Shown: positions 2,410 to 26,322 of the stretch, piece by piece
Position numbering within the stretch: position 1 is the first letter of the stretch
How the letters are laid out: every line of letters starts with the position of its first letter
NCBI GenBank assembly: GCA_036821485.1
Contig: DAISJM010000002.1
Span: 3,771-67,770, forward strand
DNA from: Verrucomicrobiota bacterium
GTDB lineage: Bacteria > Verrucomicrobiota > Kiritimatiellia > CAIQIC01 > JAGNIJ01
Length of the DNA: 64,000 bases
Direction of reading: 5' to 3'
Position numbers and translations under genes: made by a program
The notes under the pieces: model-generated
What the model was told of the DNA's origin: nothing
Databases searched by the model: none
Seen by the model: the letters and a program-made list of their open reading frames with translations, nothing else

Positions 2410-4839
2410 TTAAACTTCCGTCTCGTCGGTCGGATTCTGCGGAATCTCTCCGTCGAGGTCGATCAGAATTTCCCGCGGATCCGAACCACACGGCGGGCCA
2501 ACAACCCCGCGCTGCTCCAACAGGTCCATCAACCGCGCCGCCCGCGTGTACCCAATCCGCAGCCGCCGCTGCAGCGACGAGGTGGACGCCCGCTTCGTCT
2601 GGCGGATAATCTCGATTGCCGAATCAAGCAGGTCATCCTCCCCCATATCGGGCAAGTCGGGGGCGTTGCTGTCCATCTTGTCCTTGATGGTGTTTTCGTA
2701 CTGCGGCTGCCCCTGCTTCTTGATGAAATCGACGATTCTCCGCATCTCCGCGTCCGTGGTCATCGTGCCCTGCGCGCGGGTCAACTTGCCGCTGCCCGGC
2801 GGCAGAAAGAGCATATCGCCCTTGCCCAGAAGCTTGTCGGCACCGTTGGCATCGAGGATCGTGCGGCTGTCCACCTTCTGCGCCACCTGGAAGGAAATAC
2901 GCGCCGGGAAGTTCGCCTTGATCGTGCCGGTGATGACATTCACCGACGGCCGTTGTGTGGCGAGGATCATGTGGATGCCCACCGCACGCGACAACTGCGC
3001 GAGCCGGGCAATCCCGGTCTCGATTTCCGCCTGCGCCACCAACATCAAGTCCGCCAGCTCGTCCACCACGATCACGATGTATGGCAGCCGGTCCGGCGGC
3101 TCATCGCTCGGCTTCTCAGCCTCGCCCGGCGCGCCCTCGAAAAGTTCGGTCTGCTTCAGAATCGGCCGGGTGTTGTAACTCTTGATGTTGCGCACACCGA
3201 CCTTCGCGAAAAGCTTGTAGCGCTTCTCCATCTCGTTGATCGCCCAGCGCAGTCCGATGCTGACCTTCTTCGGATCGGTGATGACCGGAACGACCAGGTG
3301 CGGCAGGTGGTTGTAGGTGGAGAACTCGACGATCTTCGGGTCGATCAGCATGAGGCGCAGCTCGTCAGGCGTGCGCGACATCAGCAGGCCCGTCAGGATG
3401 GAGTTCATGCAGACCGTCTTGCCGGAGCCGGTCGCACCCGCGATCAGCATGTGCGGCATCTCCGCCAGGTCCGCCACAATCTCGTGACCGCCCACGTCCT
3501 TGCCGATGGCCAGCGGCAACGCGGCCTTCCCGCTCTGCCACGTTGCGCTCTCGATGAGCTCGCGCAGGAACACCACCGTCGTCTTCGAATTCGGCACCTC
3601 GATGCCGACCACGCCCTTGCCGGGAATCGGCGCCTGCACGCGGACGCTCTCCGCCTTCATCGCCAGCGCGATGTTGTTGCCGAGCGCGACGATCTTCTCC
3701 AGCCGCACGCCCGGCGCCGGCAAGAGCTCGTACCGCGTAACCACGGGGCCGCGCTCGACATTCGTCACGTCGACCTCGATACCGAACTCTGCAAAAGTCT
3801 CCTTCAGCACCACCGCACTGGCTTGGAAATCGCCGCGAATTTCCCGGTCCTTTTCAGGCGGTAACGGGTCCAGCATGGAGACGGGCGGCAGTTTGAAGGC
3901 AGAATTGGTCTGGCTGAAGAGGGGCTCCGGGTTGACGGGTTCCGGCGCGCGGACCGGCTTCGGACGTTCCTTCTTCGGCGGAGGCGGCAACTCCTCGACC
4001 TCTTCCTCCACCTCGGGAATCTCCGGCTCGGGCACCGCTCGCGCACCCCGTCCGGGCGTGATGATAACCGCCGGCCGAATGGCGGGTTTTTGCACAGCCG
4101 CCTCGCGCTCAGCCTTCTCCTGCTCTTGCTCGCGCATGACGTCTTCCAAACGCCGGCGCTGCTTCTCAACCTTGCGCTGCTCCCGCTCAATCTGCGACCG
4201 TTCATCGCGGTGCTCCGCGATCTTCTCATCCACCTTCTTAAACAGCGCCACGGCCAGCACCCCAATCGCGTGCGCAATCTGGAGAGGATGAATCTCGATG
4301 AAAAGAATCAGGCTGATCGCCAACAACGACGCCGCGATAATGCCCGTGCCCACCGTACCCAGCCACCGCACCAGCATTTCATCGGTCAGAAAGGACCCCA
4401 CCACACCACCCGGCCCGCAGGTGTTAAGCTTCTCCACAACCCCTTCCCACGCACCGGGTTGTAAATCGAAGATACAAAGCAGCGCCAAGAGCATCACGGT
4501 CAGCCAAACCGCCTTCGGCCAAACGCGCCCCTCGCGTTTGAAAATGAGGAGCAGGCCGATGATCATCAGCCCCGCCGGCAACAGATAGGCCCCAATGCCG
4601 AGGGCCATGAAGAAGAAGAAGGCAGTCCACGCGCCCACAGGACCGATGAAATTCTCGGCAGGCCGGTTTGGCGGCGATTTCAGCAGGGGAATATCGCCCG
4701 GTGCATAGGAAAACAGGCTGAGAAGAAACAGGAGGGCCACCGTCACCAGCAAAATGCCCCAAGCCTCCCGCCACCCGGTTCTAGCTATTTCCTTCCTTAC
4801 CGCCATGGCCGTACAAAATAGCAGTACCCCACGCCTCAA
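2410..4839 (-). CDS. ftsK: DNA translocase FtsK (FtsK/SpoIIIE family)
   Basis: 809 aa; N-terminal polytopic membrane domain, Pro/Glu-rich linker, ATPase core with Walker A GATGSGKT, and a C-terminal gamma winged-helix ...[29 protein letters not shown]. Confidence 0.96.
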   Translation of the reverse strand: [809 protein letters not shown]

Positions 4840-4940: not shown

Positions 4941-5228
4941 TTACCCGAAGGACGGAGCTGTGGCAGTCGTCCACAGGAATCCGCCTGATGGATTGATGCA
5001 TGAGAAGTAGATGAGGAAGGACCGCAGGAGGCTGACATCGGTGATGGCCATGTACTCATCCAAGTTCCCCGCCGCATCGTAGGAACAGAGGACCTTTGAC
5101 TCACCGCCGTAGTCGGCCTGCACCAACCGGTATTGAGCGTCGTAGCTATACTTGACCGTTGTCCCCGCCTCCGCGGCAAGAACACAACCTAGCAGCACGA
5201 TCCCCACTAACCACCAACGCTTGTTCAT
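4941..5228 (-). pseudogene. signal-peptide plus YD-repeat N-terminal fragment (RHS/YD family gene remnant)
   Basis: MNKRWWLVGIVLLGCVLAAEA (signal peptide) followed by two YD repeats (YSYDAQYRL..., SYDAAGNL), then unrelated low-complexity sequence and a stop after about 95 aa. Far too short for an intact YD-repeat protein. The upstream in-frame extension to 5360 is unlikely to be coding. Confidence 0.5.
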
Positions 5229-5310: not shown

Positions 5311-5883
5311 CTAGAGAGGGATGCAAAAGGGTATGAAGTGCCGGTACTTCTTTTCTTCAAACTTCAACGTCTTCTTCTCCCCCCAACATGACAGCTCTAC
5401 CTCAAGTCTCCCGTCCCGGACTACACCACCCTCAAGCCTCACTGACAATATTGTGCCGCGGAAGATCTCTGTCTCTTGAACGGATGACGGAGCGACAGCA
5501 GCCCCATCAATCTTTTCAAAGATGACATCTCCCAGCCCACCGGAATGCACAAGCTTGAGGATATTCGTTTCGTGAGGGGGATACAGAGCCTTATCGGTCA
5601 TCGGCACAATCGGTATGAAAGCAGGCCCCACCCAACTCATACGATCAGCCAGAACAGGATACACCACAACCTCATTGGTTGTCCCCATAACGAATTCATA
5701 TAGAGGAGGCTTATACTGCCCAAATGAGGGCTCTCTGCTGCGAGTATGCCACCCCCCTTTTTCCACCACATGAAAGCCATCCTCTAAATGCACAAGCGTC
5801 AGGTAATCGGCCGAATCCACGACAGAACACCCGCCCACCAAGCAAACCAGTACACAGGCCGCAGCCAGAACGAGTCTATTCAT
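5311..5883 (-). CDS. hypothetical lipoprotein
   Basis: MNRLVLAAACVLVCLVGGCS has a lipobox LVGGC; about 190 aa with no recognisable domain. The apparent upstream extension in the ORF track is encoded by the transposon inverted repeat and is rejected. Confidence 0.6.
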   Translation of the reverse strand: MNRLVLAAACVLVCLVGGCSVVDSADYLTLVHLEDGFHVVEKGGWHTRSREPSFGQYKPPLYEFVMGTTNEVVVYPVLADRMSWVGPAFIPIVPMTDKALYPPHETNILKLVHSGGLGDVIFEKIDGAAVAPSSVQETEIFRGTILSVRLEGGVVRDGRLEVELSCWGEKKTLKFEEKKYRHFIPFCIPL

Positions 5884-5905: not shown

Positions 5906-5931
5906 GGGGTCAGACCTACAAATAACAAATA
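5906..5931. repeat. left terminal inverted repeat of the transposase element
   Basis: Exact reverse complement of 6988-7013. Confidence 0.85.
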
Positions 5932-5934
5932 GGC

Positions 5935-6945
5935 TCATTCCAGCACCCCGAGGCTTCTCTCCGCCTGCTCCAACTTCCGCCGCAGCCCCTTGTCTGTCTT
6001 GACCAGCCGATCCGTTCGCCTCACCTGCCAACTGACCGCCGATCCCCACTGGAGCCCCAGCTCCCGCGCCACCTCCCGTTGCGTCAACCCGCTATGCCGA
6101 CTCAGCAACAGCGCCGCCAGCCCCCGCGCGCCCTGCCCCCTGCTCCGACAGCCAATCTCCTCGACAGGCACCCCCATCACCTGCGACACCGTCTTCAGGA
6201 CTCTCCTCGGCGCCACCGCCACCACCTGCCTTCGAAACGTCGTATCCTCCGGCCTCTTCAACCTGCCAACCTGTTCCGCCCCCACCTCCCGCATTCTCTC
6301 CATGAATCCCTCTCCGCCGATCCCCTCACTCGCCCCCTTCACCAACTTCTGGACTTCCTCGTCCGTCTTTGCCAACCCCTGTTCCACATACTTCCGGTAC
6401 GCCGAAGGCCTCCGCCCTTTCTGCCCCGCCAACTGTGCCAGCACCGGCCCCATCTCCAATCCCTCAATCGCCCTTGCCCTCCCCGCATAGGCCGGGTAGC
6501 TGCTCCAGCGATAGCCCCGCAAATACCGAACCTGCTCTTTTAGCGGCCTTTTCTCGATCTCCCCGACATGCACCGGGTTCAAGTGTACATACCGGCTCAG
6601 TTTCAGCAGGTACTCATCCCCCTCCACCGGCTTTCCCCCAAACCGACCCTGCAACAGATGTCCCACCCGCCGGTGCCTCTTGTTGAAGTACATCGTATAC
6701 GCCGTCATCAGCGACTGCATGAATCGGCTGATATTGGCCCCCGGTGTCTCCACCAGCAGATGCACGTGATTGTTCATCAGGCAGTACAGGTACAGCCTCA
6801 CCCCGTGCTTCCCTGCCTGCTCGCTCAACTGATCTAGGAACCGCCCACGATCCCCGTCATCCCGAAAGATATCCTGCCTCCCGTTCCCCCGAACGGTCAC
6901 GTGGTAGATCGCCCCCTCGAACACAATCCTTAGTTTTCTCGCCAT
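5935..6945 (-). CDS. IS200-like HUH (Y1) transposase fused to a DnaA C-terminal-like HTH domain
   Basis: 336 aa; the HUH motif is NHVHLLV; the catalytic Tyr helix AYTMYFNKRHRRVGHLLQGRF fits the IS200/RayT pattern; the C-terminal ~90 aa (SQVMGVPVEEIGCRSRGQGARGLAALLLSRHSGLTQREVARELG) resembles DnaA domain IV. Confidence 0.85.
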   Translation of the reverse strand: MARKLRIVFEGAIYHVTVRGNGRQDIFRDDGDRGRFLDQLSEQAGKHGVRLYLYCLMNNHVHLLVETPGANISRFMQSLMTAYTMYFNKRHRRVGHLLQGRFGGKPVEGDEYLLKLSRYVHLNPVHVGEIEKRPLKEQVRYLRGYRWSSYPAYAGRARAIEGLEMGPVLAQLAGQKGRRPSAYRKYVEQGLAKTDEEVQKLVKGASEGIGGEGFMERMREVGAEQVGRLKRPEDTTFRRQVVAVAPRRVLKTVSQVMGVPVEEIGCRSRGQGARGLAALLLSRHSGLTQREVARELGLQWGSAVSWQVRRTDRLVKTDKGLRRKLEQAERSLGVLE

Positions 6946-6986
6946 ACCCGCCTTCCTACCACCCCTTGCCCTCTCCGTCCACCCTC

Positions 6987-7466
6987 TTATTTGTTATTTG
7001 TAGGTCTGACCCCGGAAAGATCGGAAAGATTGCTTGCAGATCTACTCCCAAAGCTACTGAGTATCAGGCGCCCAAGGGAGGTCATCGTGGCCCACCCAAC
7101 ACCAAGAATGAAAATATTGCTGACAGCAGCATTCACGTAATCGAACACGTTGAAGTTCACAAAATCCTTGCTGTTCACCGGATTGGCAAGGAGAGCTAGA
7201 AGGCATAGCGGAGGAAAGCCCAGGAAAAGAACAAGCCCTGTTACGGCACCGACCGCGCGCTGTGCGAATGATGCAACTCTGAGAGAACAGAATATGAACA
7301 CGAGTCCCGACAACGCGGCGAAGTACAGGAAAACGGGATATCCTTCGGCAAAGAAGAACCCGATCGCGTTCTCTCTTTGGCTTTGCAGCGGGATGCTGGC
7401 AACGACGGAGATAGACGCCACACAACACACAATCGCAGAACCCAGTCTTAGCCTTTCAGTACTCAT
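6987..7466 (-). CDS. small 4-TM membrane protein, candidate RHS immunity protein; 3' end modified by the transposon insertion
   Basis: Starts 10 nt after the stop of the RHS C-terminal gene on the same strand. Four predicted TM helices. The final codons GVRPTNNK and the stop are encoded by the right inverted repeat. Confidence 0.55.
   Translation of the reverse strand: MSTERLRLGSAIVCCVASISVVASIPLQSQRENAIGFFFAEGYPVFLYFAALSGLVFIFCSLRVASFAQRAVGAVTGLVLFLGFPPLCLLALLANPVNSKDFVNFNVFDYVNAAVSNIFILGVGWATMTSLGRLILSSFGSRSASNLSDLSGVRPTNNK
6988..7013. repeat. right terminal inverted repeat of the transposase element
   Basis: Exact reverse complement of 5906-5931; it overlaps the last 8 codons and stop of the upstream 4-TM ORF. 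Confidence 0.85.
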
Positions 7467-7475
7467 CTCAGCACT

Positions 7476-8903
7476 CTATGGGAAGGAAGCCCGAATCACG
7501 GTGTTGGCGCTCGAAGTTGAGGATACGGAACCCCTCGATCCACGGGCTCCAATCGATATTGCTCCGCCATTCACTGGCGCGAGAAACACGCTGCGGGATA
7601 TTTCATTGGGGGTCGTCTGGGAGTCATGAACAATGGGCACCCCCGCAGCACGCAGACCGTCCGCCACAAGAGAACCACAGGTATACTCACTGCCATCAGA
7701 GGACTGAATACCGACTATCGCACCATAGTCATACCCGCCGAAGGTGCCTCCAACAAGAGCCTGCCCCGCAAATTTAAGAAGCCCAGCTTCATCAACCGCG
7801 CCGTTTGGTCGCATGATTTGGAATGTCTTCCCGTCCAGACTGTCCGGGGCATCAATAACAACACCGTCGCCAGGACGAGCCGTTAGAATACCATCCTGCA
7901 CCCTAATGCCAACATGCCCATACACATCTCCGGGAGTATTTGCATCTGCAGTGAAAATAGCGATGATCCACTGAATGATATTGTTATCGACATAGAGATA
8001 CACATCCCCAACCCGTCCCTGCGCCCAACTCTCCCCCCACCCCCACGGGTCGATGAAGTTCACCGGATCGCCGTGGCAGTAGGCGTACAGATTCAACCCG
8101 CCCGGAAGGCCAATCGGATCTTTCGTGAGCCACCGTCTCAGGTCCGCCGCGTAGTACCGCGCTTTGATGTAGTACAGCGACCCACCCTCGTGATACGCCC
8201 CATACCCGCCCCCGAACGTATACGGCGTCTCCACCCCGCCTGCCTGATCCAGCACTTCTCCGTACGGCGAATAGGCGTACTCCGCCACCACCGCCCCGTT
8301 GGTGTCCGTCAGCGCCAGCGTCGACCCCTGCTCATCCGCGTGGAAGTAGTACACCGCTCCGTTTGTTTCCACCTGCGCCAGCAGCCCCCGCGCGCCCCAG
8401 ATGTAGTACCGCACCGGCAGCCCGTTCGTGTCCGCCTCCATCAGCACGTTGTGCAGCGCCGCGCCACGATCCAGCACGAAATGCCGGGTGCCTTGCAGGG
8501 AATGCCGGGTCACCCGATCCCCCAACCCGTCGTATTCATAGGCGCTGGCCGTTCCCTCGTTCACCACGTTCGTCATCCGATTGTCGTGGTCGTATCCCAT
8601 CGCCAGCCCCATCCCGTTGGAGACCAGGTTCCCATTCGGATCGAAGTAGAAGGCGTTGGTCGTCCACGCCTCATCACCCGGGGCCGCAACACGAAGCGTC
8701 TGCGAAAGCCGATCGGCCCCGTCGAAGGTCATGCACTCCACCTTCGGCTGCAGGTCCCCCACCCGCCCCGCCACGATCTCCTCTTCCATCTTAAGCCCCA
8801 GCCCGTCCCGCGTAAATACCCGTTCCAGAAATGCCGTGGCACCGAGAATATAGGAGAATCCCGCCAGCCTCTGTGTATCGTCCCATTCAAACACCCCGGC
8901 CAC
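7476..8903 (-). CDS. 5'-truncated RHS/YD-repeat protein (orphan C-terminal fragment) with a variable C-terminal toxin domain, possibly a permuted papain-fold (LRAT / NlpC-P60-like) enzyme
   Basis: Multiple YD repeats (YEYDGLGDRV, YYFHADEQGSTLALTD, YAYSPYGEV). RHS core end RYYAADLRRWLTKDPIGLPGGLNLYAYCHGDPVNFIDPWG (DPxGL-type). A ~190-aa C-terminal extension with GDVYGHVGIRVQDG (like the LRAT His box) and YTCGSLV (like the NlpC/P60 YDCSGLV Cys box). The ORF opens with GTG directly after an in-frame TAA, so the N-terminal ~1000 aa of a normal RHS protein are missing. Confidence 0.8.
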   Translation of the reverse strand: MAGVFEWDDTQRLAGFSYILGATAFLERVFTRDGLGLKMEEEIVAGRVGDLQPKVECMTFDGADRLSQTLRVAAPGDEAWTTNAFYFDPNGNLVSNGMGLAMGYDHDNRMTNVVNEGTASAYEYDGLGDRVTRHSLQGTRHFVLDRGAALHNVLMEADTNGLPVRYYIWGARGLLAQVETNGAVYYFHADEQGSTLALTDTNGAVVAEYAYSPYGEVLDQAGGVETPYTFGGGYGAYHEGGSLYYIKARYYAADLRRWLTKDPIGLPGGLNLYAYCHGDPVNFIDPWGWGESWAQGRVGDVYLYVDNNIIQWIIAIFTADANTPGDVYGHVGIRVQDGILTARPGDGVVIDAPDSLDGKTFQIMRPNGAVDEAGLLKFAGQALVGGTFGGYDYGAIVGIQSSDGSEYTCGSLVADGLRAAGVPIVHDSQTTPNEISRSVFLAPVNGGAISIGARGSRGSVSSTSSANTVIRASFP

Positions 8904-9231
8904 TTAGGGTCAGCCCTCACGGTCCCCCGCGGATGAATCCGACCGGGCGGGAGATGATGTTCTGTGCGAGAGAAGAAACGACGAGCAGTTCAAGAAGGCA
9001 GATACTTAGGAAAGAGAAATGAAACCCGAGTCGATGGACATGTTTCCGCGGCGCGAGACTCCGTCGCATGCGATGCTCCCCTTGGTGGGTCCTTTTCTAC
9101 ACCCAATCCCCGCTCTCTGACTAGGGGGGGTATCTTGTAGGATGTTCCTGACAAATGGTCCGCTCCATTCCGAGACTCGACAATCATCCCGGAAATCCGC
9201 ATTGTTCTGACAGGTGTAGCCCACAAGGAGC

Positions 9232-10089: not shown

Positions 10090-11135
10090 TGCAGAACACA
10101 TTGTTCATCGTAATCCCGACCCTGGCCGTCATACTCGCCGCCGCATGGTGGATACGCCGCAGCATCCTGGCCGCCATCGCCAAGCCGCGCGACGACCAGT
10201 CGTTCGCCCTCCTCCAGAACCAGGTCAACGCCCTCAACACGCAGGTGGCGCAGGCCCTCGACAACACGCGGAAATCGATGGACGAGCGCCTCGACAACGC
10301 CGCGCGCGTCATCCAGGGCGTGAGCAAACAGCTCGGCCAACTCGACGAATCGTCCCGCCGCATTTTCGATATCGGCAAGGATATGGCCAGTCTGCAGGAA
10401 GTGCTCCGCTCGCCGAAGCTGCGCGGCAATATCAGCGAGCTGTTCCTCGAAGACCTCCTCGCGCAGATCCTGCCGCCGGACCATTACAAAATCCAGCACG
10501 CCTTCCGCGGCGGCGAAACCGTCGATGCCGCCATCGTACTGAAAGCCGGACTCGTTCCGGTGGACGCGAAGTTCCCCCTCGAGAACTTCCGGCTCGTGGT
10601 GGCTGCCGCAGACGATGAAGCGCGCAAGATCGCGCGGAAAACCTTCCTGCGCGATGTTAAAATCCACATCGATGCGATCGCCCAGAAATATATCCGGCCC
10701 GACGAGGGTACATTCGATTTCGCGCTGATGTACATCCCGGCCGAAAATGTCTACTACGAGACGATCATCAAGGATACCGACGGCACCGCGGACTTCTCCC
10801 TGTTCAACTACGCCCTCTCGAAACGCGTCATTCCCGTTTCGCCGAACAGCTTCTACGCCTACCTGCAGACCATTCTGCTCGGCCTGAAAGGCATGAAGGT
10901 GGAGGAAAGCGCGCGCGACATGCTCAACGCACTGGCCGCGTTGCACAAGGATTTCGAGCGGTTCGAGGAACCGTTCCGGCTCATCGGGAAGCATCTGGAG
11001 AACTCGCTCAAGCAGTTCGCCGACGCGGATAAGCGGCTCGGGAAACTCACGGGCCGCATGGAGCAAATCGACAGCGCCACCAAGGGCCTCAACGCACCAG
11101 AGGTTCCGCCTGCGATCCACGGCTCCCCGGAATGA
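10090..11135 (+). CDS. rmuC: DNA recombination protein RmuC
   Basis: Start at MQNTLFIVIPTLAVILAAAWW (N-terminal TM), coiled-coil region, and conserved RmuC C-terminal domain (...FDFALMYIPAENVYYE...). The track ORF has a spurious N-terminal extension to 9963. Confidence 0.85.
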
Positions 11136-13554
11136 TCGCCCCGGCCGACTCTGCATCGCGCCACGGTTTCGAGTCCTTGTAGCTCTCCACCATCTTCGCG
11201 AGCGTTGAGCCCGGCGCAAGCTCCTGCGCCCGCCCAGCCAGTTTCACAGCAGCTCCGAATTCGCCCACTTCGGCATGCGCCGCAGCTCGGACCGCCAGCA
11301 CCAGAGGATCCTTCTTATCGCTCAACCAGCCGGCCCGGTCCGCAAGTCGTACCGCCTCGGCGCCATTACGAACAGCGTCCTCCCGACACGTGGCGCGAAT
11401 CCACCCGAGAGCCACCAAGGCCGACGTCTGGTACGGAAGGTCCTGTAAGACATTCTCATACAGGTCGGCCGCTTCACGAAACTTGCCGCGCCGGACCAGG
11501 AGATCGGCCAACTTCTCCTTTGCACGCGCGAAGTGAGGCAACTCCTTCAACACAGCTTCGAGTCCATCACGCGCATCGTCCAACGCGCCCACGGCCAGCG
11601 CCAGCATCGCGCGGTTGTACAAGCCCTGCACGTTGCGTGGATGCTCGCGCACCACGCGCTCCAGCAAGGCGTAGGCATCGTCGAACCGGCTCATCGATGT
11701 GAAACTGCCCGCCAGGTTCACCTGCGCATCGACGTTCCGCGGATTAAGCTGCAGCGCGCGTTCGAAGAACGGCACGCTTGCGGGAATCGATCCAAGCCCC
11801 GCCAGCCTCGCCCCCACGCGGACAAAATCCCGATCGCGCCCACGCTTATCCACGCCCTCTTCCAAGGTTTGGAGAGCGGCGCCCCGGTCGCCCGCGCGCG
11901 CCTGCGCCTCCGCCAGTTGGAGCTTCAGATCGTGACACCACGGCGCGATTTCGCCGGCCGACTGCAGCACGGGTACCGCCGCCGCACCATCTCCGACGTC
12001 CATCAACAACCGCGCAAAATTCTGCCGCATCATCCAATCGTCGGGCCGCGCGGCCATCGCGCGTTGGTAAAGGTCCCTTACTTCATCGCCGCCCGCAGGC
12101 CGGGCCGCCCGCGCCTTCTCCTGCCACAGGTACACCGCTTCCTCGTTGAAGGCCTGCCGGATAAACGGCGCCCGCTTTGATCGCTCGCAAATCTCCAGGT
12201 ATGTCTTCGCTTCATCCGCGGCCGAAAACGCGATCTGTTCCTTGCACGCGTCCATCGACGGGACTGCATCCGACCCACCCAACCCCAACAGCAAGCCCAC
12301 GCCATCCAGCAGCCGCGATGCCACCCGGTAGTTGCCCTCGAACGAGAAATGTACGTGATCGAGGAAGACACCGTCCCCCAGCAACTCGGGGTCCTCGGTC
12401 AGGTTCAGCAAGGCGAATCGCGGCCGCGAGCAGTCGGACACCGCGAAGATGATCTCGTTGATCCGCGTATCGGCCCGAAACCGCAGCGCATCGAGATCAC
12501 GCGCCGCCTCATATTCCGCCATCGCGTCCTGCCCCAGTCGCTCCATGCACCGCGCACGACGATAGCGCAGCTCGGCATATTCATCATCCAAGCGACTCGC
12601 CTCATCATACGATTTCAGCGCGTCCTTCCAGTCGGCAGATGCCTCGCAGCTGGTTCCATCCGCCCACGCTTTTCCCCACGCCGCGAGGTCCGCTGCGGCC
12701 AGCCCGCGGCGATGCTGCGACGCAAACGGCGGACACACGCGCAGGTTCACCGCGACGGTGCACAGCAACACCCCTGCTTTTGCATCGCCGGCGAAACTCA
12801 TAATGTCGCGCAAGTTCGATTCAAAATGGCTGTAGGCCGCCTCCAACGCGGGATCGTCATGAGCCACCAGCGTCTGCGAAAACATCGAGAGCCCTTCCCA
12901 TTCCGGCAGGCCCCGATCGCCCTTCGCAAGCTGCACGCCGGCGTCGAGCAACTGCCCCACGCGCGTCGCGCGATAGAACATATTCGCGCGGATATACGGC
13001 AGGCTACCCGAGAACGTGCGGAACGTGGTCCCCGGCCCGTACGGCCCGAGGATCTCGTTGTTGCCCATGTAGATAACGAAGAGGTCCGGCTCCGCCTGGG
13101 CACAGGCACGCGCAATCTCACGCACCGCATGCGAGTTGATCGCCGTCATCGCGACATTGACCAGTTCCACCTGCGCGTCCGGATAACGCTCGCGGAGCAT
13201 CACGTCCAATATCCGCGTGAAACTGTAATTGCCGGCAGGGTCGCCAAGCGCCGCCGATTCGCCCAGCACAAAGACGCGGCGGACGCCTGCCGGTTTCGGG
13301 GTTTGCAGGGCCAAATCGAGCGGCGCGCGCGCAATGGCCCGCGGAAAGAACCGCCAGCCGAAACGCTCGTTGACGTGCAACACAGTCCTGCCGTCTGCCA
13401 GCCGCATCGGTACCAGAAAAGCCGAGGGATATCCCCATCCCGCGATGCGCAGCCCAATTTCGAGACAGCCCACCACCAAAGCCGGGGCGAGCAGCGCCAG
13501 AAGCGCCCGCTTGGCCCAAATTGCACCGCGTCCTGTCCGTCCGCCTGTCGTCAT
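11089..13554 (-). CDS. SGNH/GDSL-hydrolase-like N-terminal domain fused to a long TPR-repeat region
   Basis: 821 aa. N-terminal signal anchor, VFVLGESAALG and YMGNNE motifs typical of SGNH hydrolases, and many TPR-like repeats in the C-terminal two thirds. Its 3' end overlaps the rmuC 3' end by ~47 bp (convergent). Confidence 0.7.
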   Translation of the reverse strand: MTTGGRTGRGAIWAKRALLALLAPALVVGCLEIGLRIAGWGYPSAFLVPMRLADGRTVLHVNERFGWRFFPRAIARAPLDLALQTPKPAGVRRVFVLGESAALGDPAGNYSFTRILDVMLRERYPDAQVELVNVAMTAINSHAVREIARACAQAEPDLFVIYMGNNEILGPYGPGTTFRTFSGSLPYIRANMFYRATRVGQLLDAGVQLAKGDRGLPEWEGLSMFSQTLVAHDDPALEAAYSHFESNLRDIMSFAGDAKAGVLLCTVAVNLRVCPPFASQHRRGLAAADLAAWGKAWADGTSCEASADWKDALKSYDEASRLDDEYAELRYRRARCMERLGQDAMAEYEAARDLDALRFRADTRINEIIFAVSDCSRPRFALLNLTEDPELLGDGVFLDHVHFSFEGNYRVASRLLDGVGLLLGLGGSDAVPSMDACKEQIAFSAADEAKTYLEICERSKRAPFIRQAFNEEAVYLWQEKARAARPAGGDEVRDLYQRAMAARPDDWMMRQNFARLLMDVGDGAAAVPVLQSAGEIAPWCHDLKLQLAEAQARAGDRGAALQTLEEGVDKRGRDRDFVRVGARLAGLGSIPASVPFFERALQLNPRNVDAQVNLAGSFTSMSRFDDAYALLERVVREHPRNVQGLYNRAMLALAVGALDDARDGLEAVLKELPHFARAKEKLADLLVRRGKFREAADLYENVLQDLPYQTSALVALGWIRATCREDAVRNGAEAVRLADRAGWLSDKKDPLVLAVRAAAHAEVGEFGAAVKLAGRAQELAPGSTLAKMVESYKDSKPWRDAESAGAIIPGSRGSQAEPLVR

Positions 13555-17092: not shown

Positions 17093-20000
17093 ATGGCCGT
17101 GTCTAATGTGAAGTCAAAACCGGCGCCGGCACCCGTTTCCCCGGAGAAACCGGCAGTTCCCGATCAACAAACCGGCGCCTTCTTTCGGCGCGTGGACTGG
17201 GCAGCTTTCTGGACCACCTTTCTGATCACCCTGGCGGTCTATGTCTATACTCTCGCGCCCACCGTCACACTCGAAGACTCGGGCGAACTCGCCGTCGGTT
17301 CGGATTACCTTGGCGTCCCCCATCCTCCGGGCTACCCCATCTGGACGCTGATCACATGGTTCTTCCAGTGGATATTCGGCTGGGTCCGCTACTACGGCCA
17401 TCCCAATCCTGCCTGGTCGGTCGGCCTTGCCTCCGCCTTCTTCGGCGCGCTGGCTTGCGGGCTGCTGGCCCTTCTGGTCTGCCGATCCGGCTCGGATATG
17501 CTCCGCAGCCTGAAGCGCACCACGGAGGTGCTCGGGTACCAGACAGAGAACTTCCTCTGCTGGGTTGGTGGCGTCGCGGGCGGCCTGCTGCTTGCCTTCA
17601 GCCCCGTCCTCTGGTCCCAGTCCGTAATCGTGGAAGTGTATGCCCTGAACGCTTTCTTCCAGGGCTTGATCATTCTCCTGGTCTACCGATGGATGTGTCG
17701 CCCGCGCGAGGATAGCATCCTCTATGCGACCGCATTCATCTTCGGTCTTGGCCTTACGAATCACCAGACACTCCTCTTCGTTGCCCCCGGATTGCTCGTG
17801 GCCATCTGGTTCCGCGACCGCCCTCTCTTCCGCGATTGCCTCGCCCTCTTGTTCTGGGCCGTGGCCGGGCTGATGTTCTGGAAGTCTTCACAGATAACCG
17901 GCGGCAACCTGAGCCCCGAGGCCCTGCGCGACAAGCACACGCAGATGACGCTCGGCCTGCTCTTCCTCGTCGCCCCGGTCGGCCTGTTCCTCATCGAACG
18001 CAAGCTTTTCACCGAGTGGAAACGCGTCATCATCGCTGCGCTACTGGTCGTGCTCGGCGTCTCCTTCTACGCCTATCTGCCGTTCTCGTCGGAACAGAAC
18101 CCGCCCATCAACTGGGGCTATCCCCGCACCCCCGAGGGTTTCTGGCATGCCCTCAGCCGCGGCCAGTATGAGAAAATCACCCCGGCCGACATCTTCACCA
18201 AGAAATTCCTTCTACAGGTGTCGTCCTACCTGGGCGACTTGCGCCAGCAGTTCACATTCCCCATCACACTGATCGGCCTCGTGCCCTTCTTCTTTATCCA
18301 CAAGATCGATCGGAAGACACGGACGTGGCTCTTCACCACGCTGATTTCATTCTTCTCGCTCGGCATCGTGCTCATCACCTTCCAGAACCCGCAGTTGGAT
18401 ATCCAGACGCTCTTCATCGGTCGCGTGCAATTCATCCAATCCCACGCCGTGTACGCCATCTGGCTGGGCTATGGCCTGCTGTTCGGGCTGGCCTTCGCCG
18501 AAGCCGCCCTTGGCGGACGCTTCGGTCAGGGCGAGAAGGCTCGGAAGCCGTGGGTCTTCGGCATCAGCCTCGCCTACCTCGTGCTGGGCACGCTGCTCAT
18601 CCTTAAGATCAGTGCTGCCGACGTCGCCGCGATCTGGACGATCTTCTTCATCCTGCTCGGCCTCACCATCATCGTGATCGTTTTCGGTCACCGCCAGGCC
18701 GCCCGTATCGCAGCCGTGGGTCTGGCCCTGCTCATTCCTCTCACGCTCATTTTCCAGAACGCCTACGATGAGGAGCAGATCAAGATCGTCGGCGGCGCCG
18801 AGCAGAATGGCCATGACTTCGGTTGGCAGTTCGGAAGCTGGGAACTCCAGGGCGAAGAAGGTATCCGCGAAAGCCTCAGCTACAAACGCTCGCCCGAGGA
18901 GTTCGAGAAGATCTGGGCAGACTATCCCACGCCCGGGTACCCGTTGCCGATGGACACCAACGCCATCTTCTACGGAGGCACCGATCCCGGCCGTTTCGTG
19001 CCGACCTACATGATCTACAGCGGCAAAGTCCGTCCGGACGTCTACCTCATCACGCAGAACGCGCTCGCGGACAACACCTACATGAGCGTCATGCGCGACC
19101 TCTACGGCGATACCATCTGGATACCCTCCCAGCAGGACAGCAACTACGCGTTCCAGAAATACGTCGAGGATGTGCAGTCAGGGCGCATCCCCGCCGGCGC
19201 CGAGGTACAGTTTGAGAACGGTCGCGTCAGCGTGCAGGGCGTGCAGGGCGTGATGATGATCAACGGCATCCTTGCCAAGATGATCTTCGAGGCCAACCGG
19301 CACAAGAACACCTTCTACGTCGAGGAAAGCTACGTCATTCCGTGGATGTACCCCTACCTCGAACCCCACGGCCTGATCATGAAGATCAACAACGAACAGC
19401 TCTCCAGCCTTACGCCGGAAATGGTGAACAACGACCGCAAGTTCTGGGACTGGTACACCAAGTATCTCATGGACAACCCCAAGTTCCTGCGCGACGTCGT
19501 TGCCCGCAAGACCTTCTCCAAGCTGCGCGGCGCCATCGCCGGTATCTATGCCTTCCGGCGCATGTTCCCCGAAGCCGAATATGCCTTTGTGCAGGCCATC
19601 GAGCTCTACCCGCTCAGCCCCGAAGCCAATTTCCGTCTCGCCGATGTTTACATGCAGCAGCGCAAATTCACCCAGGCGCGCGAACTCATTGAGCGCTTCC
19701 TCAAGGAAGATCCGGGCAACGACAAGGTCGAGGGGTTCCTCAACCAGATTCGTGAAACAGAAAATGCTGACGGCCGCCGTCAGGAACTCGAGCAGAAATT
19801 CTCCAGCGGTCAGGCCGACCTCAATGTCGCGCTGGAACTTGCCGACCTCTATCGCAAGCTCGCCATGGACGGCCCCTTCCAAGGGCTGACGACCAGCATC
19901 CTGAACGATACCAATGTTCCGGCCAACGTGTATCTCGCGGTGGCCAAACTGTTCGCAGACGCGAAGCGCGGCGACCTGCTCATCAATGCGCTACAACGCT

Positions 20001-20254
20001 ACCTCGCACGCGAACCGGCCAACCCGCGCGTGTGGATTGACCTTGCGGCGATCCAAGCCGGCATGCAGAAACCTGACGATGCGATTCAGTCTATTTCGCG
20101 CGCAGTCGAAATTGGCGGGGAACCCGCACGGGATATGGTTCGCAAGGATCGGCGGTTTGACGGGCTGCGCGACAACCCGAGATTCAAGGCCTTGGTGCCA
20201 CAGGCGGCGCAGTCTTTGCCCATCAGCCTCCCGGGCAATCTGCCGCTGTTCTGA
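17093..20254 (+). CDS. GT-C-fold membrane glycosyltransferase-like protein (DUF2723 / PMT-2-like N-terminal domain) with C-terminal TPR repeats
   Basis: 1053 aa. N-terminal half has 11 or more TM segments with YPIWTLITWFFQW and DxD-like motifs; C-terminal ~300 aa are TPR repeats. Paralogous to the gene at 23107-26322. Confidence 0.7.
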   Translation: MAVSNVKSKPAPAPVSPEKPAVPDQQTGAFFRRVDWAAFWTTFLITLAVYVYTLAPTVTLEDSGELAVGSDYLGVPHPPGYPIWTLITWFFQWIFGWVRYYGHPNPAWSVGLASAFFGALACGLLALLVCRSGSDMLRSLKRTTEVLGYQTENFLCWVGGVAGGLLLAFSPVLWSQSVIVEVYALNAFFQGLIILLVYRWMCRPREDSILYATAFIFGLGLTNHQTLLFVAPGLLVAIWFRDRPLFRDCLALLFWAVAGLMFWKSSQITGGNLSPEALRDKHTQMTLGLLFLVAPVGLFLIERKLFTEWKRVIIAALLVVLGVSFYAYLPFSSEQNPPINWGYPRTPEGFWHALSRGQYEKITPADIFTKKFLLQVSSYLGDLRQQFTFPITLIGLVPFFFIHKIDRKTRTWLFTTLISFFSLGIVLITFQNPQLDIQTLFIGRVQFIQSHAVYAIWLGYGLLFGLAFAEAALGGRFGQGEKARKPWVFGISLAYLVLGTLLILKISAADVAAIWTIFFILLGLTIIVIVFGHRQAARIAAVGLALLIPLTLIFQNAYDEEQIKIVGGAEQNGHDFGWQFGSWELQGEEGIRESLSYKRSPEEFEKIWADYPTPGYPLPMDTNAIFYGGTDPGRFVPTYMIYSGKVRPDVYLITQNALADNTYMSVMRDLYGDTIWIPSQQDSNYAFQKYVEDVQSGRIPAGAEVQFENGRVSVQGVQGVMMINGILAKMIFEANRHKNTFYVEESYVIPWMYPYLEPHGLIMKINNEQLSSLTPEMVNNDRKFWDWYTKYLMDNPKFLRDVVARKTFSKLRGAIAGIYAFRRMFPEAEYAFVQAIELYPLSPEANFRLADVYMQQRKFTQARELIERFLKEDPGNDKVEGFLNQIRETENADGRRQELEQKFSSGQADLNVALELADLYRKLAMDGPFQGLTTSILNDTNVPANVYLAVAKLFADAKRGDLLINALQRYLAREPANPRVWIDLAAIQAGMQKPDDAIQSISRAVEIGGEPARDMVRKDRRFDGLRDNPRFKALVPQAAQSLPISLPGNLPLF

Positions 20255-23106: not shown

Positions 23107-26100
23107 TCAGGCCCCGCCGCGCAGGCGCTTGACCAGATTACGCAGTTCGTCGTACGACTCCGGCCTCAGCTGGCCAGGCCGCGCAAGAAGAGGATCCGCC
23201 AGCCGCAAAGCCTCCTCCTTCATGCCCCGCTTTTCATAGACTTGAGCCATGTGGAGATTGAACTGTGGATCTTCGGGCCGGAACGAAAGGGCCTTCTGAA
23301 TCGCCGCCTGTGCTTCGTCAGCCTTCTCCAGCTTCAACAGTACCATGCCCAGCGTATCCCACGCGGCCATGTGGCGATCATTGACCACGACGGCCTCACG
23401 TGCCAGCGCCAGCGATTCTTCGTAGCGGCCCTTGAGCAGAAGGAGCCAAGCCAAATCGTTGAGCGCGTCGGCGCTACGCTGCTTCTGCAGGCTGGCGCGG
23501 TAGGACGATTCGGCCAGCTCATATTCCTGACGCGAAAACTGAATGGATCCGAGGATATAGTTGGCCAACGCATTGTGCGGGTCCAACGTCAGCAAACGCT
23601 CGACGTGCTCTTCCGCTTTCTGACGAACGCCTTGGGTGACGTCGAGCTGCAGGAGCCACTCAAGTGCTGTGCGATTGTTCGGCTGAATACGCAACACGTT
23701 ATCGAGGTGCTTTCGCGCCCCGTCAAAGTCACGCTGCGCAAGCGCCAGTTGTGACAAGGTCAGCAGAATCTGCGGAGACTCGGTCGCCGCCGGTGTCAGA
23801 ACCGACAGGCATCTGTTTACCGTCTTTTCGTCGTTATCCTCGCTGGCCACCGCCGCAAGCAGCGTCCACGCCGACAAGTTCTTGGGATCTTCCTCAACGA
23901 GCTTCTGCAAGGTCGCTTTGCCGGCAGCTATATCTCCGGAAAGGACCTCAACCATGGCCTCGCGCAGGCGGATCAGTGCGGTAGGCGCGCCAATTTCCTT
24001 CAGCTTGGCGATTGTAGCACGGGCACTGTCGAAATCGCCTTTGCGCATGGCCACATCCAACAACCCGACAAGGGCCGTAGGATTCTCCGGATTGTCCTCC
24101 AGCACCTTGCCGTACAGATCACCGGGCTCGTCCTTCATGCCCTGCATAAGATAGAAGGATGCCATCGCCAGCGACGCCAGTTCCTTGTTGGCCCCCATAG
24201 CCACCGCACGCTGCATTTCGCTGATGGCCATGTTCGGCTTGCCCGACATAGCCCATGCCCAGCCGCGGTTCACAAACGCCTCCGGATTGCGAACATAGCC
24301 GTACGTCTGCGCAAGCGACCAAATGCGCAACCGCGAGCGAAGGCGGCCGGAGAAGTCATCGAACTCGGTCTTCAGCTCTTCCAACTCGGGCCGCGAATCC
24401 CTCTGCGCCACAGAGACCATGTTGAGCAGCGCGCTGACGTTATTCGTGTCGAGTTCCCGCGCTTGATGATAGGCTTCGAAGGCGAGATCGTTGCGGCCAC
24501 TATCCTCCAATGCTACCCCGAGGTTATTGGCCACCTTGCTGATGTGTCCAAGCGCCCAGCGACTCCAATCCGACACTGCACTGTCGGATGCAGCCGAAGC
24601 CTTCAGTTCTGCTCCGCACGTGTTCCAGAACTTCTCATGCTGAGAGAGCGCGGCCTCAGGATCAGGCAGTGTGGCGCTGGGAGCTCCAAGGAAGAGCACC
24701 TCCGCGGGGATGGGCACCTTGTTTCCTCCAAACCACAAATCGCTGGCCGCCAAGACCGCCAACTCATTCTCAACACCAGGTCGGCTCATCCATTCCGAGA
24801 CGAGGGGAATCATTCCCACCTGCGCAAGCCCTCTTAGCCGCGTGTCGTCCAGAAGCGAGGCCACGTAGCGGAGATAGGCGCCCAACCCCTGACCCATGTT
24901 GATGACATGAACCGGCACGTTCTGCTCATGCGCCGAAAGCACGATGAGATCATCCAACACCCCGTTGGAGAGCAGCCAAGTCCGCCCGCCGAGGCGCTCC
25001 ACAACCGCATCTGCAAAATCAGTCAAGGCGCGGCCCGTCCGACCATCAGCCGCTTTGACATTCAGCACAGCGCTCGCCGCAAAGAGCACAAGCAGCATGG
25101 GTATCAGCAGGGCTCGGCCCACACCTCGCAGAATCGATGCCGACCGCGCGTCAAACCGGCTGCGCTGCGCAAGGATGATGTACCAGTAGCCCACCAGGTA
25201 ACCTGTCCAGCAGGCCATGATGACATATGGCGTCACCAGCAGCGGGCGAAAGTGAAGCAGCGGCCACGGAGCGATGGGAATGTTGAACATCACAAGCACA
25301 GACAGAATACTCAGTAACGCGTGCAGAAACTGCGAGCCGTACACGGTGCTCCGCGTCATTGCGCGCTTGGGCGAGCCCACCACGATCATCCATGGAATCA
25401 CGCTCACCAACAGCACCATCAACCAGCCGATCTGCGGCATGCTGAACATGATCGTCCGGTACTGCTCCCTCCAGATGAACCAGAGGACCATGAAGTAGGA
25501 GTTAAATGCGCGCCACTCATAGGCCGGGTGCAGCCGATAAAGCCACGCGTGAATGAAGTAGACGGATAGACCCAACACGTAGAGCAGGACACACCGCGTC
25601 ACCGTGCCCGCTGTCAACGTCTTGGTTCGCCACATCGCCAACGCGAGCACAAACGCCATGAATGGAGCCAACACGATGAAGGTCGCAAACTCCGTGGTCG
25701 CCAAACCGTACAGCAATACGAATGCATTGAGATGACTGCTCTTCCCTGTCTCCTGAAAACTCATCAGCAGGCGAACGCTGAGCAGGAGCAGAAACACATC
25801 GAATGCCGCCGTATGTGCGCGGGTCGATACAATCCAGAACGGAACACAAAGGGCCAGATACAAGCCGGCGACAAGGCCGGAGATCGTGGCGGGAGCATCC
25901 GCAGGAAACCGCGATTCCACTTCTTCGGCCGTGCGGTTGTGAGGAATACGGGAGACGATTCCGTAGAGCAGCCAAACAGCACCCGCTCCGCAAAGCGCGC
26001 TGAAGAAGTTCAGACGCAACGCGATATCGAAGATCGGGATTACGCCGAGAAGCCGCACCGCCAGGAAATACAAAGGATGCGACATCGGGGGGAACGGATC

Positions 26101-26322
26101 CAGCCCCAGATGCTGCACCATCAGGCGGGCTGATTCACCGGGCGCAGCCGTACGGCTCAACGTCAACAAGTAGACCACCAGCGAAAGCGCAAACAGCCAC
26201 ACGCCGGCCGACCTACGCGAGTTCTTCAGAATACGGTCAATCTTATCGAACATGGCTGCACATGTTAAAGGAAGAGGCCCAATGAGGCAACGCTCATGTG
26301 TGAGGACAGACGCGGGCCGCAC
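23107..26322 (-). CDS. GT-C-fold membrane glycosyltransferase-like protein (DUF2723-like) with C-terminal TPR repeats; paralog of 17093-20254
   Basis: 1071 aa; N-terminal polytopic domain, C-terminal ~450 aa of TPR repeats. The true start may be the internal Met MFDKIDRIL. Confidence 0.7.
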   Translation of the reverse strand: MRPASVLTHERCLIGPLPLTCAAMFDKIDRILKNSRRSAGVWLFALSLVVYLLTLSRTAAPGESARLMVQHLGLDPFPPMSHPLYFLAVRLLGVIPIFDIALRLNFFSALCGAGAVWLLYGIVSRIPHNRTAEEVESRFPADAPATISGLVAGLYLALCVPFWIVSTRAHTAAFDVFLLLLSVRLLMSFQETGKSSHLNAFVLLYGLATTEFATFIVLAPFMAFVLALAMWRTKTLTAGTVTRCVLLYVLGLSVYFIHAWLYRLHPAYEWRAFNSYFMVLWFIWREQYRTIMFSMPQIGWLMVLLVSVIPWMIVVGSPKRAMTRSTVYGSQFLHALLSILSVLVMFNIPIAPWPLLHFRPLLVTPYVIMACWTGYLVGYWYIILAQRSRFDARSASILRGVGRALLIPMLLVLFAASAVLNVKAADGRTGRALTDFADAVVERLGGRTWLLSNGVLDDLIVLSAHEQNVPVHVINMGQGLGAYLRYVASLLDDTRLRGLAQVGMIPLVSEWMSRPGVENELAVLAASDLWFGGNKVPIPAEVLFLGAPSATLPDPEAALSQHEKFWNTCGAELKASAASDSAVSDWSRWALGHISKVANNLGVALEDSGRNDLAFEAYHQARELDTNNVSALLNMVSVAQRDSRPELEELKTEFDDFSGRLRSRLRIWSLAQTYGYVRNPEAFVNRGWAWAMSGKPNMAISEMQRAVAMGANKELASLAMASFYLMQGMKDEPGDLYGKVLEDNPENPTALVGLLDVAMRKGDFDSARATIAKLKEIGAPTALIRLREAMVEVLSGDIAAGKATLQKLVEEDPKNLSAWTLLAAVASEDNDEKTVNRCLSVLTPAATESPQILLTLSQLALAQRDFDGARKHLDNVLRIQPNNRTALEWLLQLDVTQGVRQKAEEHVERLLTLDPHNALANYILGSIQFSRQEYELAESSYRASLQKQRSADALNDLAWLLLLKGRYEESLALAREAVVVNDRHMAAWDTLGMVLLKLEKADEAQAAIQKALSFRPEDPQFNLHMAQVYEKRGMKEEALRLADPLLARPGQLRPESYDELRNLVKRLRGGA

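Follow-up and report, generated by a model that had tools for sequence, protein, structure and literature searches.

What is a truncated rhs gene with a toxin-like C terminus doing in a Kiritimatiellia chromosome, and what would its product attack if it were delivered? The question is raised by a 475-residue open reading frame (ORF) on contig DAISJM010000002.1, within the 64,000-nucleotide stretch that was analysed as a whole and is called the window here. The original prediction, made from the DNA letters, had described an orphan RHS C-terminal cassette with a permuted papain-fold tip and a downstream candidate immunity gene. We consider it probable that the locus is an orphan RHS cassette whose tip is a lipid-directed acyl hydrolase and whose neighbouring protein, with four transmembrane (TM) helices, confers immunity at the membrane, the toxin being silent in this genome. 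The window is identical to contig CAZGBH010000004.1 (assembly GCA_964523715.1) in the public record; there the 475-residue product is identical to public protein P0001, annotated as 'RHS repeat-associated core domain-containing protein [Kiritimatiellia bacterium]'. The parts of the cassette are as follows.

7476-8903, minus strand: 475-residue ORF (truncated RHS shell, core and toxin tip), stop codon included.
8037-8903, minus strand: residues 1-289, C-terminal piece of the YD-repeat shell plus core.
8040-8273, minus strand: RHS repeat-associated core, residues 211-288 (TIGR03696).
8037-8120, minus strand: core-end motif DPIGL-x18-DPWGW, residues 262-289, the tip-exchange junction.
7479-8036, minus strand: toxin tip, residues 290-475, predicted permuted NlpC/P60 (YiiX-like) domain.
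6987-7466, minus strand: 159-residue ORF with four TM helices (4-TM ORF), candidate cognate immunity protein.

The RHS character of the 475-residue ORF is far beyond chance. YD repeats run from its first residues and are visible from residue 5 (FEWDDTQRLAGF, MTFDGADRL, FYFDPNGNL, YEYDGLGDR), and the TIGR03696 model (Rhs_assc_core) matches residues 211-288 with E=1.2e-21 and 76.9 bits against a cutoff of 32.5. Further matches to TEN_YD-shell, RHS and RHS_repeat (PF25023, PF03527, PF05593) are weak, as is that to TIGR01643, which is nonetheless above its own cut-off. The shell profiles are matched by their ends alone (positions 690-866 of 909 for TEN_YD-shell and 1155-1260 of 1261 for RHS_core), and the core ends with DPIGL (residues 262-266), 18 residues and DPWGW (residues 285-289), after which the tip begins. 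Hence, from the truncated profile matches, the core end and the tip that follows it, what remains here is the 3' portion of an rhs gene. Shell and core together amount to 289 residues, in keeping with the short YD stretch of the original prediction, and include neither an N-terminal trafficking or plug domain nor the full shell of more than 1000 residues. The GTG start lies inside the shell and is preceded in frame by TGA-CCC-TAA, the in-frame stop having already been noticed, and the 328 bp upstream of it hold no RHS-like sequence in any frame. As had also been claimed, no full-length rhs was found in a search that covered the window and the adjoining 3.7 kb of the contig; the only other RHS or YD gene in the window is a 95-residue ORF at 4941-5228 (minus strand) with a signal peptide. 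These features support the proposal of an orphan, 5'-deleted rhs module, as do the near-identical shells with unrelated tips, the tandem array of truncated cassettes in L009 and the split gene in L014, all described below. A 50-residue ORF at 8917-9069 (minus strand) has the look of a Sec signal peptide (MRRSLAPRKHVHRLGFHFSFLSICLLELLVVSSLA/QN); it is read in another frame and stops 14 nt short of the RHS GTG. Its fusion to the RHS ORF by a single frameshift was ruled out by two intervening stops in the RHS frame.

At the junction the third-position GC content (GC3) breaks sharply, from 0.806 in the shell to 0.505 in the tip, with 0.547 in the 4-TM ORF and 0.815 in the host ftsK gene. A metagenome contig, L016, follows window positions 8835 to 8030 at 96.5% nucleotide identity and then continues into an unrelated tip and a different multi-TM ORF, and locus L002, which matches positions 8489 to 8041 at 92.6%, carries a third, unrelated tip. 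All eight shell relatives compared by BLASTP lose similarity to the window protein between residues 288 and 325, mostly at 288-295, and beyond its DPxG[LWT] junction each continues into a tip of a different kind. Tips are therefore swapped within the population at the DPxGL-x18-DPxG[LW] junction. One and the same tip and immunity pair, moreover, stands behind a long RHS protein in L006 and behind a truncated one in L007.

The tip itself comprises 186 residues (290-475), of which the last, from about residue 454, form a disordered Ser/Gly-rich tail. On its own it has no match in Pfam, in NCBIfam or in a single-sequence search of the PDB, and a word-indexed protein search with it came back empty even though the collection contains the protein, so that an exhaustive search was needed to recover relatives. 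With phmmer over 1.84 billion representatives (E<=0.001) we retrieved P0001 itself and 12 others, 11 of which belong to the tip family, P0009 having been dropped as a short repeated match. Most members form the C terminus of RHS proteins, and one of them, P0005, is a full-length RHS protein of 1976 residues with a lipoprotein-type signal. A scan of genomes and metagenomes with a five-sequence tip alignment found one genome locus and five metagenome loci, and tblastn found no match on plasmids. The conserved blocks of the 12-sequence family alignment are GDVYxY, GHVGI, ILTARPGxGVxID, GYDY, YTC(A/G)S and TTPN, and the window tip keeps every family-conserved residue in an intact reading frame. 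The residues of most interest map to these codons.

7914-7916, minus strand: His330 (GHVGI), predicted catalytic histidine from alignments with 3kw0 and YiiX.
7677-7679, minus strand: Cys409 (YTCGS), predicted nucleophile at a helix N terminus, from alignments and model.
7725-7733, minus strand: Tyr391-Asp-Tyr393 (GYDY), candidate oxyanion-hole tyrosine from conservation and the YiiX alignment.
7851-7883, minus strand: ILTARPGDGVVID block with Thr341 and Asp351, two candidates for the third catalytic residue.

Both of the catalytic motifs named in the original prediction are present, His330 within GDVYGHVGIRVQDG and Cys409 within YTCGSLV, although they are separated by 79 residues rather than the roughly 95 given there. 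Cys409 is invariant in the 12-sequence alignment and His330 nearly so; Tyr391 (Y102 of the tip) is likewise invariant and Tyr393 (Y104) nearly invariant, and the ILTARPGDGVVID block is conserved in both alignments A1 (the 12 sequences) and A2. Against the PDB, the family profile gives its best match to the Bacillus cereus protein 3kw0 (E=2.9e-4), with His330 and Cys409 falling on His49 and Cys154, the catalytic residues of that permuted enzyme (Xu et al., PMC3142127). An AlphaFold model of the tip built from the alignment (pLDDT 77, pTM 0.76) has the histidine on a strand and the cysteine at the start of a helix that begins at tip residue 120, and Foldseek with this model also returns 3kw0 (E=1.3e-5, TM-score 0.62). 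Pairwise hhalign to Escherichia coli YiiX is statistically weak (5.8% probability), and in this weak alignment His330, Tyr391 and Cys409 pair with YiiX His49, Tyr115 and Cys128; the His-to-Cys spacing is the same in both proteins. For the third catalytic residue, Thr341 occupies the His+12 position of canonical NlpC/P60 enzymes, and Asp351 pairs, with low confidence in hhalign, with YiiX Glu64. Profile search and structure prediction thus agree with the predicted permuted papain fold with its His box ahead of the Cys box, and on alignment and model the tip is best described as a circularly permuted NlpC/P60 Cys-His hydrolase domain with a papain-like alpha/beta core. Its nearest family is YaeF/YiiX and not LRAT, which had been suggested alongside NlpC/P60, and it lies outside every Pfam model as they stand: none of the 12 family members matches PF05708 at E<=10, a model that E. 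coli YiiX itself matches with 2.9e-49.

Some relatives carry the domain in other settings. In P0011 (1591 residues) it sits mid-protein, at residues 430-554 after an RHS core, and about 1000 residues follow it, in which more YD repeats and, at the C terminus, a TM helix are found; this protein may be a two-gene fusion or a misassembly. In two loci that are unrelated to each other, L003 (6082-7155 and 7171-7664) and L007 (4936-6066), tip cassettes are immediately preceded by genes for Xer-like tyrosine recombinases. The L003 tip is without an RHS part, and that locus also has an antitoxin and RelE/ParE-like pair; the setting of both loci recalls recombinase-associated arrays of immunity and toxin fragments.

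What such a domain would cut had been left open in the original prediction, and rightly so, since acyltransferases, phospholipases and peptidases all occur with this arrangement; a report from 2026 has shifted the balance towards lipids as the target. It describes Tox-Act1, an effector of the Salmonella SPI-6 type VI secretion system (T6SS), as a permuted NlpC/P60 protein that is toxic in the periplasm only, that cleaves phosphatidylglycerol and phosphatidylethanolamine, and that is inactivated by mutation of its His or Cys (PMC12994826). Phospholipase activity is also reported there for TseH. In addition, YiiX was crystallized with a fatty acid in a hydrophobic S1 pocket beside its Cys (PMC3142127). 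Given the Tox-Act1 report and the YiiX pocket, we favour a lipid-directed acyl hydrolase. The alternative, that the tip is a peptidoglycan amidase or endopeptidase lysing its targets as canonical NlpC/P60 toxins (the Tae family, Tox-NLPC/P60) do and as TseH was first thought to, draws on the position of the tip within the NlpC/P60 superfamily, on the likeness of its His box to that of the DL-endopeptidase CwlO in the search of the family profile against the PDB (E=0.0054), on weak NLPC_P60 matches of four family members (best E=0.09), on the lysis of permeabilized cells by TseH (PMC4453574) and on the existence of RHS-fused canonical NlpC/P60 toxins (PMC3482391). However, the partner is an integral membrane protein at every locus and not a soluble periplasmic one, cells poisoned by Tox-Act1 lyse with the sacculus kept, and the activity now assigned to TseH is that of a phospholipase (PMC12994826). 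We regard a peptidoglycan target as unlikely.

The gene downstream of the tip encodes 159 residues with four hydrophobic helices, as predicted, and starts 9 rather than 10 nt after it (stop TAG at 7476-7478, ATG at 7466). It has no family match, and a low-confidence model predicted from a two-sequence input is all-helical. The word-indexed search gave one near-identical relative, P0014 (92% identity), and an exact-sequence look-up found no called gene. An equivalent TM ORF on an ENA contig, L017 (5367-5780), is likewise uncalled, from which we conclude that the missing annotation reflects the gene caller and not decay; missing gene calls probably explain the near-absence of relatives in the indexed protein search.

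We therefore looked at the DNA downstream of every tip homologue for which it could be retrieved, leaving out L021 as too short. A multi-TM ORF directly follows the tip in all nine informative loci (the window, L003, L004, L005, L006/L007, L008, L017, L018/L019 and L020), which bears out the predicted toxin-immunity layout. In the relatives these ORFs have three to four TM helices and about 100-140 residues, and they start within a few dozen bases of the tip stop. Three features, an NP[IVL]N loop, a downstream (S/A)N..(I/V)..G motif and the final helix, are common to the window ORF and to six of these loci; in the TM-ORF alignment (A7) the residues P96, N98, N117 and G122 are invariant, and the similarity to the window ORF reaches E=1e-3, 1e-4 and 2.5e-5 (hhalign, 75% probability) in separate comparisons.

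7059-7184, minus strand: NPVN loop (residues 95-98), S116-N117, G122 and last TM helix of the 4-TM protein.

A second loop type, PPG[KQ]SGLAT, occurs in L004 and L018/L019 beside tips of the P0005 and P0007 type, which by eye are the most alike in the alignment, so that the immunity type appears to follow tip similarity. The C-terminal tails of the TM ORFs are strongly positive, which by the positive-inside rule would put the NPxN loop on the periplasmic side. Compared with L002, dN/dS is 0.43 for the 4-TM ORF and 0.16 for the shell, and L002 keeps the 4-TM gene even where the tip has been cut away from it. The 4-TM protein is probably the antidote of the tip. A different role, that of a working partner of the hydrolase as in the LnsA/LnsB two-component acyltransferases, has a precedent in that permuted NlpC/P60 enzymes can reportedly work with polytopic membrane partners (PMC7387801); but the domain follows an RHS core at a tip-exchange junction, and the TM proteins are small (104-159 residues) and fast-evolving and come in types that follow the tips, which is the pattern of immunity. 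We hold this role to be very improbable.

Taken together, the mechanism we favour would run as follows. Joined to a full-length RHS protein that is Sec-exported or otherwise delivered, as in P0005, the tip would be released from the RHS core and attack a neighbouring cell, where, as a Cys-His acyl hydrolase (a phospholipase or lipid amidase), it would cleave lipids of the inner membrane from the periplasmic side. The 4-TM protein would neutralize it at the membrane, probably through the conserved NPxN loop. The copy in the window lacks an export signal, and its shell is too short to close into a cocoon, so that the toxin is most likely silent; the benefit of the cassette would then be immunity to kin armed with the toxin, together with a tip held in reserve for recombination.

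Several observations weigh against this interpretation. The Glu of the YiiX triad is not evident in the tip, with Thr341 or Asp351 as candidates in its place, and even at E<=10 the tip family is not recognized by any Pfam model for YiiX, LRAT, TseH or DUF4105. The case for a lipid target is one of analogy, drawn from Tox-Act1 and TseH; for Rhs tips in general, the cytoplasm is given as the usual site of action (PMC12994826), and TseH was first described as a cell-wall hydrolase (PMC4453574). On the side of the partner, the structure model is poor (pLDDT 53), and the TM ORFs show weak homology to one another, with an hhalign probability that does not exceed 75%. The public record, moreover, lacks a call for the 4-TM ORF, whose 3' end is altered by an inserted element described below. 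Finally, the classical orphan position, downstream of a main rhs gene, is not seen in the window and the 3.7 kb beyond.

The shortness of the RHS part also lends itself to another explanation, that the short protein is functional as it is, either as an intracellular toxin-antitoxin (TA)-like module or as a 'mini-rhs' unit together with a small protein made of a signal peptide and YD repeats (SP+YD). All 54 of the closest shell relatives have 194-494 residues, several of them on long contigs, and in L009 a relative 64% identical in its RHS part sits in a tandem array of five truncated cassettes, each built as a 105-residue SP+YD ORF, a truncated RHS gene and a small ORF in the place of the immunity gene. 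SP+YD homologues head all five (902-1237, 2454-2771, 4463-4780, 6546-6968 and 8286-8603), and the conserved DNA unit of the array, 530-650 bp, spans the SP+YD ORF into the RHS core. The window has its own homologue.

4941-5228, minus strand: 95-residue ORF combining a signal peptide with a pair of YD repeats (GTT.xYxYDAQYRL...YDAAGNL); GC3 0.737.

An orphan rhs in Salmonella, moreover, reportedly acts as a TA module (PMC7043789). Against this, the retained shell varies among cassettes from about 35 to about 290 residues, the mark of recombination remnants and not of a fixed architecture, and in L014 a full-length RHS gene has been split and the short relative is its terminal piece; variable shell length and this split gene together rule out a short RHS protein of about 450 residues as a fixed architecture. 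Nor does an SP+YD gene stand in front of the window ORF, and a periplasm-acting toxin with no signal would be harmless inside the cell, as Tox-Act1 is non-toxic in the cytoplasm (PMC12994826). We give a short RHS protein that functions as it stands little credence. Another SP+YD homologue comes after an rhs-immunity pair, in L014 (11465-11674), and the one in the window probably marks the start of a next cassette that has been lost. The SP+YD ORFs may be what is left at the 5' end of rhs genes after internal deletion, or they may encode a secreted partner in its own right, and units headed by them may represent a form of cassette storage and exchange unlike the layout of a main gene followed by orphans.

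The cassette could also be decaying junk, a recombination leftover in which the toxin fragment and the small ORF are neither expressed nor useful. The 5' truncation and the missing export signal fit such a view, as does a promoter and terminator scan that stayed at chance level, with promoter-like sites not above chance. At about residue 40 of the ORF, the GAA codon of the window is replaced by an in-frame TAA in the L016 allele (L016 1-60 against window 8780-8835), so that decay of the 5' remnant of the shell has set in in one lineage at least. The uncalled 4-TM ORF, moreover, has had its last codons rewritten by an adjoining element with a Y1 (IS200-like or REP-associated) transposase-like gene.

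5906-7013: inserted Y1 element between 26-bp inverted repeats; Y1 gene at 5935-6945, minus strand.
5311-5883, minus strand: 190-residue lipoprotein ORF, lipobox LVGGC; GC3 0.553.

Yet the frame of the tip is intact with all family-conserved residues in place, the dN/dS values of shell and 4-TM ORF against L002 and the retention of the 4-TM gene there without its tip speak against this view, and the equally uncalled TM ORF of L017 points to an effect of the caller. Decay without function therefore seems quite improbable to us, about as much so as a working short RHS protein, and we return to an orphan that would be kept for its immunity gene and tip.

The Y1 gene has a weak C-terminal DnaA_C-like helix-turn-helix and a host-like GC3 of 0.795. 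Perfect 26-bp inverted repeats flank it at 5906-5931 and 6988-7013 (GGGGTCAGACCTACAAATAACAAATA), where none would be expected by chance, and the left repeat of the element supplies the last eight codons of the 4-TM ORF. Its 109-bp right end is 100% identical in L002 at another site, 7 nt before the tip stop and directly upstream of the 4-TM gene, which shows that the element moved or recombined within the population. The element stands outside the toxin system, yet it interrupts the cassette. Next comes the lipoprotein ORF, of which the public record calls a 109-residue version only; neither Pfam nor NCBIfam yields a match to it, and the related loci contain no homologue, which rules it out as a conserved second immunity gene; it may be further cargo of the same cassette. 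The stretch of low GC3 formed by the tip, the 4-TM ORF and the lipoprotein ORF is bracketed by the host-like RHS shell and the SP+YD ORF.

On the minus strand the order is accordingly the 475-residue ORF (8903 to 7476), the 9-nt gap, the 4-TM ORF (7466 to 6987), the Y1 gene (6945 to 5935), the lipoprotein ORF (5883 to 5311), the SP+YD ORF (5228 to 4941) and ftsK (4839 to 2410), with usp and rmuC upstream of the 475-residue ORF on the opposite strand. In this chromosome of the Kiritimatiellia (PVC, or Planctomycetes-Verrucomicrobia-Chlamydiae, group), usp/rmuC and ftsK thus enclose a small island of foreign DNA with one orphan polymorphic-toxin cassette inside it. The other annotated ORFs of the window are housekeeping genes; no T6SS gene is among the annotated ORFs, and across the 64 kb a tRNA scan found no tRNA gene and no Rfam family reached its gathering score. 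Two large paralogues at 17093-20254 (plus strand) and 23107-26322 (minus strand) combine a TMEM260-like, glycosyltransferase-type N terminus with many TPR repeats, and a third protein with TPR repeats is encoded at 11089-13554.

That permuted NlpC/P60 enzymes can be antibacterial toxins directed at lipids was demonstrated only in 2026, with Tox-Act1 and supporting data on TseH. The cassette would extend such toxins to RHS-borne ones, to the little-studied Kiritimatiellota and to the YiiX-like branch, and it offers a possible handle on how YiiX-type enzymes may act on membranes. That TM immunity genes are uncalled both in the source record and in L017 means that toxin-immunity surveys relying on called genes miss such genes. 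A bolder proposal, which we put forward tentatively and would not ourselves bet on, is that the tip and its 3-4-TM partner are a new family pair missed by domain libraries and gene callers, an RHS-delivered, lipid-directed enzyme of PVC-group and other environmental bacteria with NPxN-loop immunity and possibly 'mini-rhs' storage.

Among known systems, Tox-Act1/Imm-Act1 is the closest characterized precedent. Like the tip, Tox-Act1 has a permuted NlpC/P60 core with an essential His near the N terminus and Cys near the C terminus, and as here a small TM immunity protein is encoded directly downstream in a setting of interbacterial conflict. In contrast, it is a free T6SS cargo effector and not an RHS tip, a mode of delivery with no counterpart among the annotated ORFs here; its His and Cys (H43, C151) are 108 residues apart rather than 79, the likeness being one of description and not of sequence alignment; Imm-Act1 has two TM helices (PMC12994826) where the present partners have three to four; and its phospholipase activity is demonstrated, whereas that of the tip is proposed by analogy. 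The YaeF/YiiX family (PF05708, Peptidase_C92; YiiX 2if6 and BcPPNE 3kw0; PMC3142127) shares the order His, Tyr, Cys with aligned catalytic residues, and YiiX the identical His-to-Cys spacing; identity is only about 20%, there is no PF05708 match at E<=10, the triad Glu is not evidently conserved, and YiiX and BcPPNE are housekeeping proteins with no immunity partner, not toxin tips. TseH of the Vibrio cholerae T6SS (PDB 6v98, DUF6695) has the same permuted NlpC/P60 fold as BcPPNE, YiiX and, by prediction, the tip, but it is 10% identical to the tip, which has no DUF6695 match, and is not RHS-fused; the paper on TseH and TsiH (PMC4453574) does not use the word 'transmembrane'.

The orphan rhs-CT/rhsI modules (Poole et al. 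2011, PMC3150448; for Salmonella, PMC7043789) resemble the present cassette in being 5'-truncated fragments in which some of the core is retained together with a variable tip and its immunity gene, with alternative tips on one backbone and a break in composition at the core end. Classical orphans adjoin a full-length rhs on its downstream side, whereas here there is none within about 68 kb; unlike them, too, the cassettes of relatives are headed by an SP+YD ORF, and a Y1-type element is inserted here. Tox-NLPC/P60 (Zhang et al. 2012, PMC3482391) is also a papain-like NlpC/P60 domain fused to RHS repeats, but it has the canonical order C, H, D and is a predicted cell-wall degrader, the word 'permuted' not appearing in that text. 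LRAT/PLAAT proteins (H-RAS-like suppressors) give a much weaker match than YiiX, and the tip has no PF04970 match; they are eukaryotic or viral and carry a C-terminal membrane anchor instead of a separate TM partner. RHS orphans, NlpC/P60 toxins and TM immunity proteins are thus already known, and permuted-fold toxins have recently been characterized as free T6SS effectors; set beside them, the tip represents a rare family, new and so far without a name, within a kind of toxin that is itself known.

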